Assembly (NCBI GenBank): GCA_004297485.1
Contig: SCTM01000153.1
Span: forward strand, 2,172-66,171
Reading direction: 5' to 3'
Length of the DNA stretch: 64,000 nucleotides
Origin: Rhodospirillaceae bacterium
Lineage (GTDB): Bacteria; Pseudomonadota; Alphaproteobacteria; Rhodospirillales; Rhodospirillaceae
In this document: piece after piece, positions 16,862 to 19,041 of the stretch
How the letters are laid out: each line of letters starts with the position of its first letter
Position numbering within the stretch: the stretch's first letter is position 1
Made by a program: the position numbers and the translations under genes
Notes under the pieces: generated by a model
Told to the model about the DNA's origin: nothing
Database searches by the model: none
The model's input: the letters and a program-made list of their open reading frames with translations, nothing else

Positions 16862-18205
16862 ATGCCAGGGTTTTGTGATTCCAGCAGGTTGGGGGCAGCT
16901 CAAGGACGGGGGACAGACTTGGCATACGAAGAACTGGATGTCGCGGATCTGCGGGTAAACCAAGCCAATGATCGGCACGGTGAAGTCGGCAGCGAAGATT
17001 TGGCCATTGCTGAACTGTTCCGACTCCACGACGTGCAGATGCGAAAGCTCGCTTCCGATATCATCGCAGAGGGTGCGATCTACGATGCGCCGCTGGTTAT
17101 GCAGTCGGACGATGGGTACACGGTCTTCGATGGAAATCGGCGCGTCACTTGCGCCAAACTGCTCGCCAGCCCTGCTCGAGCGCCATCTGTAGAACTTCGA
17201 ACTTATTTTGAAGGTTTGCGAGCCGGTGGTGCGGATCGAATACCCACCCGATTGACCTGCCAAGTCGAGAACAACCGAAATACAATCGACAGCATACTCT
17301 TTCGACGTCATACCGGTTCACAAGGTGGCGTCGGCCAACTCGACTGGAACGACCGCGCCAAGCTAAATTTTGTGGAGCGGACCGGACGCGGCGGCGCAGT
17401 AAATATCGCGGCAGAGGTAGAACGTCTTCTCACAGAAGCGGAAAGGCTTCCGCAAGAGGACATGCCATGGTCCACGTTGACGAGACTGTTATCGTCGGAG
17501 GAATTCCGGAATCGCGTAGGGGTTAGCACTGCGGGGCGACGCTTCCAGTTAACGCATGAACATGGGGCCGTTACAGACGTACTCCACAGAATTGCAAGCG
17601 ACCTAGCTAATCAAGTCGTGACGCTAGGCCATCTTTGGAATAACGAGGGCAAGAGAGCCTATCTCAATCAACTAGAAGCAGAGGGCGTACTGCCCAGCGC
17701 CAACGAACGATTAGAGGCTCCGATTGAAGCAGGGCGAGCCCCAAGGAATCCGAGGCGAAATCAACCTCGTCCTCAGCCGCCGCAAACGACATTCATACCT
17801 GCGGACGCCCCCAATATTCAGTGGATTGCCGCGCAACAGCGCATAAGAGCCGTCTGGGAAGAGCTGCAATCGTTGACATTTCGGCAGCATCCCAATGCAA
17901 TATCGGCACTAATGCGTATTCTGGTCGAACTTTCAGTAGAAAGCTACATGAACGAACATCGCCTGCCGGAGCAGGATAATCTTTCACGTAAGGTGCGTGT
18001 TGTTTCGGAACATCTCCGAAATCGTCAGATAATCGATCAGGCATATTACGACGAGTTGGAAAGAATTAGGCAGAACGATCAGTTGATCTCTATCGCCAGT
18101 ATGCAACGTTACATCCACTCGCCCGATTTCGCGCCGCTCGAAAACGAGCTTCGAACCTATTGGGTGCGACTGGGACGTTTTCTTATAGCAACACTTAATC
18201 GCTAA
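16862..18205 (+). CDS. ParB/Srx-fold N-terminal domain protein with a long unknown C-terminal region
   Basis: The ParB-like arginine motif VFDGNRRV lies at 17129-17143 (DGNRR). A proline- and arginine-rich linker is followed by a helical C-terminal domain. The region has lower GC. The start is uncertain, since a TTG at 16919 is also possible. Confidence 0.55.
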   Translation: MPGFCDSSRLGAAQGRGTDLAYEELDVADLRVNQANDRHGEVGSEDLAIAELFRLHDVQMRKLASDIIAEGAIYDAPLVMQSDDGYTVFDGNRRVTCAKLLASPARAPSVELRTYFEGLRAGGADRIPTRLTCQVENNRNTIDSILFRRHTGSQGGVGQLDWNDRAKLNFVERTGRGGAVNIAAEVERLLTEAERLPQEDMPWSTLTRLLSSEEFRNRVGVSTAGRRFQLTHEHGAVTDVLHRIASDLANQVVTLGHLWNNEGKRAYLNQLEAEGVLPSANERLEAPIEAGRAPRNPRRNQPRPQPPQTTFIPADAPNIQWIAAQQRIRAVWEELQSLTFRQHPNAISALMRILVELSVESYMNEHRLPEQDNLSRKVRVVSEHLRNRQIIDQAYYDELERIRQNDQLISIASMQRYIHSPDFAPLENELRTYWVRLGRFLIATLNR

Positions 18206-18270
18206 ATATTGCGAAGATCACGACACTCACGCACCGGCCATATTCATATTGGCTAGCGCCCCGGTCAAGA

Positions 18271-19041
18271 CTAAGCCCGGCCTCCGTTAGGACCGAACGG
18301 GCCTGCTCGAAATCGCGGTGAGAAGGTCGCTTCAAAAACGGGAGCGAGCATGTCGTATAATTCGTCCAGACGCCGCACCAGTTTACGCATCATGGCGTTG
18401 AACTCCCGCTGGAGCTCAGTGAGCCCTTCGCGAAAATAGCGATTAACCGGGAGCGGCTGGCCATTCTCGCCCATTATCCCGTTGTGCCGATGCTCAAAGA
18501 GAGACCCCATCTTGAACATTTGATCATCACTGCTGAAGCCACGTTCAGCGCCGTGATGAAAGCGACCATTGCGTTCCTGTCGTAACGTTCCCTGATCGGC
18601 TATCATTTCATAGAGAAGATCAAGAAACGGCTTTGGCACGCCAGCTTTCTTGAGCCTTGCAGCAGTACAGTCGCGCGCGTCCAGCTCGCACTCGAATACC
18701 TCATTGATGAGAAGCATCACGCAATCGACCACTGAAATGAAGCGCATGAGAAAGGCATCTGCCGAGACCGTTAGCCATTCGTAGCGCGAGAGCGGGAAAT
18801 TTTTGAAATTGTCGGGAAAATTCTCGGACCAAAGCATGTCTCCAACCATGTTAAGAGACTCGACACGTCGCGTCAGCGTGGACAGGAAGTGGTTGACGCG
18901 AAATGCGTATTTGCAGTCAGGATGTTTGGCCAGTTCATCGTACGTGTCGAAGTGAAGTCCGACGATGGAAAGATCATAAATCCGACCCACGAATTCATGG
19001 TTGTCGGAGGGCAAGATGAATCTTTTTAGCGGCCTGGCCAT
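18271..19041 (-). CDS. Hypothetical protein with a HEPN-like R-x4-H motif
   Basis: All-helical 256-aa ORF. RNGRFH lies at 18556-18573, an Rx4H motif with Asn after the Arg, as in many HEPN RNase families. The region has lower GC and I see no clear ribosome-binding site. Confidence 0.45.
   Translation of the reverse strand: MARPLKRFILPSDNHEFVGRIYDLSIVGLHFDTYDELAKHPDCKYAFRVNHFLSTLTRRVESLNMVGDMLWSENFPDNFKNFPLSRYEWLTVSADAFLMRFISVVDCVMLLINEVFECELDARDCTAARLKKAGVPKPFLDLLYEMIADQGTLRQERNGRFHHGAERGFSSDDQMFKMGSLFEHRHNGIMGENGQPLPVNRYFREGLTELQREFNAMMRKLVRRLDELYDMLAPVFEATFSPRFRAGPFGPNGGRA

Follow-up and report, generated by a model that had tools for sequence, protein, structure and literature searches.

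In this study, we have analysed a 64,000-nucleotide (nt) stretch of DNA from a Rhodospirillaceae bacterium (contig SCTM01000153.1, positions 2,172 to 66,171; hereafter, the window) and, within it, two genes that we call A and B, lying in a block of low guanine-plus-cytosine (GC) content beside guaA. Gene A encodes a member of the PD-Lambda-5_A family and gene B a putative HEPN protein of the Cthe_2314 family. With a probability that we put at about 0.55, the two form the core of an unnamed accessory module that is conserved in the defence islands of alphaproteobacteria, and to which the neighbouring DAC-domain gene does not belong. In such A-B loci, the HEPN protein, often together with a T5orf172/MUG113 protein, would replace the Dam-like methylase of the defence system PD-λ-5. 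An earlier reading of this DNA, made from the letters alone (the sequence-only reading), had described the two open reading frames (ORFs) as a convergent pair, and they are indeed found so, at the positions that it gave.

Linkage of the two families across genomes

The evidence for a module comes from 83 loci carrying a B-family gene, which were drawn from a species-level genome set, metagenomes and one exact-sequence look-up (designated here by L numbers), and in which A, B, DAC, guaA and other genes were located by tblastn. An A-family gene lies directly beside B in 41 loci, five are decidably without A (in one of them B is a pseudogene), and in the other 37 the contig ends are too near for a decision. 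The check on co-occurrence that the sequence-only reading had proposed was thus answered by direct adjacency in 41 of 46 decidable loci (89%). The pair is divergent in 16 loci, in tandem with A before B in 15 (with ends overlapping or nearly so), convergent in nine and in tandem with B before A in one, and the identities of A and B co-vary (Pearson 0.74 over 31 intact pairs). Because the adjacency is kept through four arrangements and several deep A lineages, we consider that the comparison provides strong evidence for a functional tie between the two families. For Cthe_2314, the genomic context was previously given as "None detected" (Anantharaman et al., 2013, PMC3710099), as against the 89% linkage to A observed here, and our literature searches on Cthe_2314/PF18730, on DACNV and on ParB with HEPN and T5orf172 returned no description of an A-B module. 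By sequence comparison, the module therefore probably represents a known defence family in a conserved form that has apparently not been described before, and its own role in defence is predicted.

The partnership is not symmetrical. B occurs without A in L028, L043, L062, L078 and L104, standing alone beside guaA in L028 and accompanied only by T5orf172 in L104, and A occurs without B on an Azospirillum plasmid and in eight further contexts that are described below. Since B is seldom found without A and A is often found without B, B looks like an accessory that depends on A. A third gene of the T5orf172/MUG113 type, encoding a GIY-YIG-like protein of about 155 amino acids (aa; Pfam E 4e-7), is present in 16 loci and occupies the gap between A and B in seven of the nine convergent ones.

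Several observations on these loci deserve mention in their own right. The T5orf172/MUG113 gene usually lies directly downstream of B, convergent on A (L029, 1563-2030; also L002-L006, L009, L015, L032, L072, L082, L101, L103 and L104). A 194-aa protein with no Pfam match and an Rx4H motif of its own (KRDFFIHRFFH), which may be a second small HEPN-like protein, is encoded beside B, except in L016, where its neighbour is A (L099, 4792-5376; also L007, L010, L016, L046, L053, L062 and L083). On the Rhizobium leguminosarum plasmid pRLG202, a 40-residue remnant of A (L099, 3750-3869) lies upstream of an intact B and is divergent from it, and on an Azospirillum ramasamyi plasmid (L100, 2550-7426) both genes are disrupted, A by an IS5-like element that splits it and B by an IS1595 element that truncates it.

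Gene products and the place of the methylase

The sequence-only reading saw no recognisable partner system for the pair, which is wrong for A: the PADLOC model PDLC03998 (PD-Lambda-5_A) covers aa 22-442 of the ORF with E 6.4e-70, 25 PD-Lambda-5_A models match the gene, and PHROG 9592 matches its N-terminal 250 residues. The 447-aa ORF that had been reported exists, but translation probably starts further in, at TTG 16919, to give 428 aa, since this codon follows a GGGGGA Shine-Dalgarno-like run at 6-7 nt and agrees both with the called product (P0121) and with the point where almost all homologs (426-428 aa) begin; the 768 homologs of A are mostly of that length. A Pfam search of window A returned no family match, ParBc and DUF262 included, and only weak GmrSD_N matches (E ~0.09) appeared in 4 of 55 A homologs. 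As the sequence profiles give no match, membership of the ParB/Srx superfamily is based on fold and motif. In the AlphaFold2 model (mean predicted local distance difference test, pLDDT, 80.1; predicted template-modelling score, pTM, 0.42, a low value that is expected for domains joined by a disordered linker), the top Foldseek neighbours are the CTPases Noc (7ol9, E 5.5e-4) and ParB bound to CDP (6sdk, E 7.1e-4), followed by sulfiredoxin (6ky4), SbnI and the free serine kinase SerK, all with a probability of about 1.0; BrxU is among the weak matches. A profile search of solved structures with the A family returned nothing relevant. On the strength of the model, the ParB/Srx N-domain named in the sequence-only reading is upheld.

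The conserved motifs agree with this fold. The FDGNRRV motif is present as reported, although its full span is 17126-17146 (aa 89-95), the narrower interval that had been given for it corresponding to the DGNRR core. D90, G91, N92, R93 and R94 are invariant in both clades of A proteins (EGNRR in canonical PD-λ-5_A), and the model places them between a strand (model residues 66-71) and a helix (73-83). The Foldseek alignments to ParB and Noc extend over about 265-275 columns, and the helical middle domain that they take in is probably, judging from the model, a candidate DNA-binding module. A Pro/Arg-rich linker followed by a helical C-domain, as the sequence-only reading had it, is seen both in the sequence and in the model. 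In the C-domain, H419 stands at the end of a short helix ahead of the last long helix, which is the site described for the HEPN motif (Anantharaman et al., 2013, PMC3710099), and PD-Lambda-5 is listed among HEPN-containing systems in a preprint. Foldseek finds this domain only weakly like HepT toxins (E 1.5-2.5, TMt 0.41-0.43), and we predict from the model that it is HEPN-like with a degenerate motif. An Rx4H string within it (RVVSEH, 17996-18013) was rejected as a HEPN motif, the column not being conserved among homologs.

Gene B is a Cthe_2314-family HEPN protein by its sequence. The RNGRFH motif is, as claimed, at aa 157-162 (nt 18556-18573), but an Rx4H alone is no signature, 54% of shuffles of the B sequence holding one by chance; what stands is its conservation, which the sequence-only reading had made a condition of its claim and which is complete in 55 of 55 homologs (54-87% identity), with E156, R157, N158, R160, H162, H163 and G164 all invariant. 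Since a single Rx4H is not beyond chance, the HEPN evidence consists of this conservation and of the Pfam match: PF18730 (HEPN_Cthe2314) matches window B with E 2.3e-5 and is matched by 48 of the 55 homologs (E <= 0.01, best 2.3e-7), with no other family, and several homologs are annotated with PF18730 or under the NCBI name "Cthe_2314 family HEPN domain-containing protein". The model is confident (pLDDT 88.7, pTM 0.85) and, as had been expected, all-helical, with long helices at 41-70 and 86-115, short helices within 127-149, a helix at 151-163 and, after a loop, helices at 173-185 and 199-246. The Rx4H motif falls at the end of helix 151-163, ahead of the loop, and a helix end before a loop is where the HEPN motif has been located (Anantharaman et al., PMC3710099). 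Because the R-N-x-R-F-H motif is canonical and invariant, B is a predicted RNase. PADLOC, NCBIfam and PHROG gave no match for B, and a profile search of solved structures with its family gave nothing relevant.

PD-λ-5 has been described as a compact "RM+Abi" system (restriction-modification plus abortive infection) that includes a methyltransferase, and it gave the broadest protection among the 21 systems of an Escherichia coli functional screen (Vassallo et al., 2022, PMC9519451). On a Kosakonia plasmid, A (PADLOC 7e-174) is followed by a D12 adenine methylase, PD-Lambda-5_B (5e-123). Window A belongs to the PD-Lambda-5_A family over its full length and has the same architecture as the Kosakonia protein, sharing the DGNRR/EGNRR, RH-G and C-terminal R/E/H columns, at an identity of only 23-24% to canonical PD-λ-5_A proteins. 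The window pair and PD-λ-5 are both two-gene modules on mobile islands, and the convergent layout occurs also in a canonical phage copy. The key difference is that the D12-class N6-adenine methyltransferase is absent: PADLOC finds no PD-Lambda-5_B among the genes neighbouring window A, and tblastn with the Kosakonia protein has no significant hit either in the window, where the best E is 0.073, or in the 83 B loci. Lacking this component, the window pair falls outside the definition of PD-λ-5; the place of the methylase is taken by the Cthe_2314 HEPN protein, with or without T5orf172/MUG113, and defence by the A-B variant is a prediction.

As to the phage copy, an unannotated 1-kb gap in Pseudomonas phage OQ658368.1 (L023) encodes a D12-type adenine methylase (6454-7245, minus strand), 44% identical to Kosakonia PD-Lambda-5_B and convergent with a PD-Lambda-5_A-like gene, so that by sequence this genome appears to carry a complete canonical PD-λ-5. 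Scans of viral contigs with the A and B families yielded zero loci.

Origin of the window pair and rival explanations

A number of results weigh against reading the window pair as a working module, and several of them concern its origin. In a neighbour-joining tree of A proteins, clade 1 comprises all the B-linked A proteins, and window A falls in a sister clade 2 of at least 120 clusters (55-83% identity). The closest relatives of window B, in L029 (87-88%), L101 (87%) and L103 (79%), carry T5orf172 and a clade-1 A, neither of which is in the window, and their A proteins are only ~43-44% identical to window A; from the relation between A and B identities, an A identity to L029 of about 92% is predicted, and 44% is observed (z = -6.6). 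Besides the window, eight contexts of clade-2 A genes were sampled, and B is in none of them: they are the tail of an MmeI-type restriction-modification (R-M) gene, the tail of a type I R-M operon with a TIR gene, an integrative and conjugative element (ICE) with relaxase and coupling protein on either side, and positions beside a resolvase, after a 574-aa protein of no known family, beside a DUF4132 gene, solo after mutL, and in a guaA hot spot facing T5orf172-like and PDC-S64-like genes (L089). We infer that window A is not the co-inherited partner of window B, and that the pair is a hybrid, or recombinant. The likeliest course is that a clade-2 A took the place of the distal part of a B-T5orf172-A(clade 1) cassette, with the convergent orientation kept. 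DNA homology with the relatives is confined to the A and B coding regions and to a B-to-guaA stretch shared with L028, so that the breakpoint of the presumed swap cannot be mapped. Other points on the same side come from the proteins: the C-domain of A has no true Rx4-6H motif; hhalign finds no similarity between the A and B families; the PF18730 score of window B (24.9 bits) is just under the gathering cut-off of 27.1; Foldseek of the B model against PDB and BFVD gives nothing significant (best PDB E 0.64, HepT E 2.7), for which reason the HEPN assignment of B is sequence-based; and the literature that we searched offers no mechanism for PD-λ-5.

A serious, though less likely, alternative is chance juxtaposition. 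In this case B would be the orphan of a B-T5orf172-A(clade 1) cassette, the distal part of which gave way to a stand-alone clade-2 A, and the two genes would be independent or B idle. Besides the outlying identity relation and the stand-alone character of clade-2 A as cargo (R-M tails, ICE, solo), this is favoured by the loci in which B is beside guaA alone (L028) or with T5orf172 only (L104), and by a guaA hot spot that is visibly accretive, with three att-like repeats. It is opposed by the state of the genes, as both are intact and keep every family-invariant residue, and by the lack of any att-like remnant between them. The convergent layout with a short spacer is also seen in L055 and L079 (45 and 62 nt, as compared to 65 nt in the window). 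Furthermore, the partners of B come from deep A lineages, including those of L015 (35% identical) and L055 (32%), so that its choice of partner is not narrow, and clade-2 A often faces a convergent gene that is not a housekeeping one, as in L089 (T5orf172-like), L090 (DUF4268) and L098. Based on the intactness of both genes, the absence of an att remnant between them, the tolerance of B for A partners of several deep lineages and the frequency with which clade-2 A genes face a convergent accessory gene across a short gap, we find cooperation of window A and B somewhat more likely than independence.

Two groups of clade-2 loci offer further observations. The closest relative of window A (83% identical) is that of L089 (5001-7476), where a guaA-end remnant lies at 8207-8282 and A converges on the T5orf172-like gene and on a gene for a 227-aa protein (PADLOC candidate PDC-S64, E 2e-8), in which hhalign detects no similarity to B. 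In L094-L097, a clade-2 A protein that is identical across 14 metagenomic contigs is encoded between DUF3363 relaxase-like and TraG/VirD4 genes, a conjugative-element position that recalls the plasmid-conflict ParB/Srx protein Osa.

The hybrid could also be read in a more general way, which we regard as unlikely: the PD-λ-5_A family would be a "hub" sensor with interchangeable partners, B would complete a composite RNase site, and the window would be a partner swap. The partners observed in our loci would then be the Dam-like methylase, the Cthe_2314 HEPN protein, T5orf172/MUG113, the 194-aa Rx4H protein, DUF4268, the PDC-S64-like protein and whole R-M operons. B would heterodimerise with the degenerate C-domain of A, and cleavage would be licensed only when the ParB-like NTP/DNA switch (NTP, nucleoside triphosphate) fires. 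If this were true, the window would represent a natural partner swap, a clade-2 hub with a clade-1-type effector, working through a generic interface.

It is very unlikely that A and B form a type II toxin-antitoxin pair, with A as the antidote to a toxic B, or B as the antidote to a toxic nuclease A. Many HEPN proteins are indeed toxins, such as HepT with its MNT antitoxins (PMC3710099), and the genes are tightly adjacent, some of the tandem A>B pairs overlapping. On the other hand, intact B genes are found without A in L028, L043, L062 and L104, and A is commonly found without B, so that neither gene can be the obligate antidote of the other, which argues against a classical toxin-antitoxin pair. 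In addition, the divergent and convergent layouts preclude co-transcription in most loci, and no MNT or other known antitoxin domain was found.

Most improbable of all, and largely refuted already, is the trio that the sequence-only reading had considered, in which cyclic di-AMP (c-di-AMP) or a related signal made by the DAC protein activates the HEPN protein and the ParB-like protein is a third component. HEPN effectors are outputs of cyclic-oligonucleotide systems, for instance Csm6/Csx1 of type III CRISPR, the three genes are packed into 3.7 kb of a single low-GC block, and the DAC protein combines a DACNV "probable sensor" domain (E 3e-16) with a C-terminal DAC domain (E 9e-7) and has the DGA and RHR motifs (PADLOC and PHROG give no match for it). 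Against this, no DAC homolog is found in the 83 B loci or in L101, L103 and L104, and Pfam detects in B and its 55 homologs only HEPN_Cthe2314, with no CARF, SAVED, STING or other nucleotide-sensor domain. The layout of the locus also separates the DAC gene. The guaA 3' end is present in three direct copies, 78-83% identical to each other, which delimit three cassettes: the 63-aa ORF, the DAC gene and B with A. The DAC cassette is a single-gene one, having a guaA-end copy on each side and no partner gene inside, and the guaA remnant that the sequence-only reading had noted between B and the DAC gene is confirmed, as 41 nt at 19145-19185. This arrangement suggests serial integration at one guaA 3'-end attachment site; no integrase gene was found within the 16.7-20.85 kb block. 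B is the immediate neighbour of guaA in relatives (L028, L032, L069, L081 and L104), and the homology between the window and L028 extends from B across the remnant and, on the L028 side, into the true end of guaA; the sequence comparison thus indicates that the DAC cassette was added separately and later, coming in between guaA and a B-containing cassette that was already there.

Possible mechanism, neighbouring features and implications

ParB/Srx domains act as NTP-dependent switches on DNA in ParB CTPases, GmrSD/BrxU, SspE and DndB. Because these proteins behave so, we propose for the conserved module that A would be an autonomous sensor whose NTP-dependent DNA binding reports infection or foreign DNA. 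B would be a latent RNase, harmless alone and switched on through A, possibly by pairing of its HEPN domain with the degenerate HEPN-like domain of A. The outcome would be abortive infection via RNA cleavage, and T5orf172 might serve as an optional DNA-binding or nuclease adjunct. An "RM+Abi" logic is suggested because PD-λ-5 has been described in those terms (Vassallo et al., 2022, PMC9519451).

This proposal has parallels, and clear differences, in several known systems. In having a ParB-fold domain fused to a HEPN-like helical one, A resembles the ParB-HEPN fusions (Anantharaman et al., 2013, PMC3710099), of which Saro_3948 is an example; the likeness is one of architecture. Clade-2 relatives of A that close type I and MmeI-type R-M operons recall the R-M-embedded HEPN (Abi) proteins, and the same context has been reported for many HEPN families (PMC3710099). 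Instead of Rx4-6H, the C-domain of A has [R/K]-Y-[IV]-H. With the "RM + Abi" arrangement of PrrC/EcoprrI, the A-B pair would share a latent RNase that backs a DNA-level barrier. The ParB/Srx-fold N-domain of A, with its DGxxR-type motif, is coupled to what is predicted to be a nucleic-acid-cleaving effector, as in GmrSD, BrxU, SspE and DndB; the effector in A-B is of the HEPN type (a predicted RNase) rather than an HNH/DUF1524 DNase, it comes partly in trans from a second gene, and A has no significant sequence match to DUF262. Finally, B is like HepT of the HepT-MNT pairs in being a small all-helical HEPN protein with an Rx4H motif, and the weak Foldseek matches of A and B include no HEPN structures other than HepT chains. 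However, B is about twice the size of HepT, A-B has no MNT partner (Pfam detects no NTP_transf_2/MNT domain in A or elsewhere in the cassette), and A and B each occur alone, unlike an obligate toxin-antitoxin pair.

The features of the locus are collected in Table 1. The low-GC block (~16.7-20.85 kb) has 51-55% GC, as compared to ~63-67% in its neighbours; that both genes belong to it, as the sequence-only reading held, is borne out by their own GC contents (53.3% for A and 52.5% for B) against the 64-67% of the ABC-F gene, guaA and rsmB. Promoter and terminator scans of the A/B spacer never rose above background.

Table 1. Positions in the window of genes A and B, their domains and motifs, and the surrounding features
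Feature	Position	Strand	Description
ABC-F ATPase gene	15018-16664	-	One edge of the low-GC block
ORF A (mechanical)	16862-18205	+	447 aa, ATG start
Gene A	16919-18205	+	428 aa from TTG; PADLOC PD-Lambda-5_A
ParB/Srx-fold N-domain of A	16919-17314	+	AlphaFold2 model, Foldseek and conserved motifs
Motif NxxNDRHGE of A	16958-16984	+	Family-wide, at least 90% conserved in both A clades
DGNRR motif of A	17129-17143	+	Predicted phosphate-binding loop of the ParB/Srx fold
Motif RRHTGxQxGVGQxxW of A	17303-17347	+	Family-wide, at least 90% conserved in both A clades
Helical middle domain of A	17351-17680	+	Aligned with the ParB/Noc region after the N-domain; helices 145-254 in the model
Pro/Arg-rich disordered linker of A (RAPRNPRRNQPRPQPPQ)	17723-17785	+	pLDDT <50 at model residues 269-284
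Helical C-domain of A, predicted HEPN-like	17828-18199	+	Conserved R352, E356 and H419
[R/K]-Y-[IV]-H-S of the A C-domain	18107-18121	+	Includes H419
Inter-stop spacer A/B	18206-18270	.	65 nt; no T5orf172/MUG113 gene, unlike the nearest relatives
Gene B	18271-19041	-	256 aa
Motif ERNGRFHHG of B	18550-18576	-	Family form E-R-N-x-R-[FV]-H-H-G
guaA-end remnant (att-like)	19145-19185		41 nt (83% identity to the true guaA end); direct-repeat family D2; guaA-side boundary of the B+A cassette, lying between the DAC gene and B
DAC-domain gene	19229-20569	-	446 aa
guaA-end copy 2	20559-20638		Direct-repeat family D2 (20559-20599)
Innermost cassette	20639-20850		Holds only the 63-aa ORF (20653-20844), no family match
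guaA 3' end, true	20851-20930		Direct-repeat family D2 (20851-20891)
guaA	20852-22405	-	Other edge of the low-GC block

Elsewhere in the window there is a second low-GC island (29128-34771, ~53% GC) with several genes. One of them encodes an 1138-aa protein (29862-33278, plus strand) that has no Pfam match but aligns with PADLOC Dsr1 (E 3e-21) over the middle and C-terminal part of that model, its own first ~400 residues and the N-terminal part of the Dsr1 model being left without a PADLOC match. The island also encodes a 256-aa protein and a 248-aa protein (weakly PDC-S31-like), both of no known function, and a PIN-domain toxin gene (34385-34771, minus strand).

In conclusion, our results remove as unsupported a tempting link between a DAC cyclase and a HEPN effector, and they point to a second, widespread partnership of the PD-λ-5_A component, with a HEPN protein from a family that had no known genomic context. 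A likely role can thereby be assigned to the Cthe_2314 HEPN family. Moreover, the PD-λ-5_A proteins now offer three natural configurations to compare, namely those with a methylase partner, those with a HEPN partner with or without the GIY-YIG-like gene, and the solo or R-M-tail copies.

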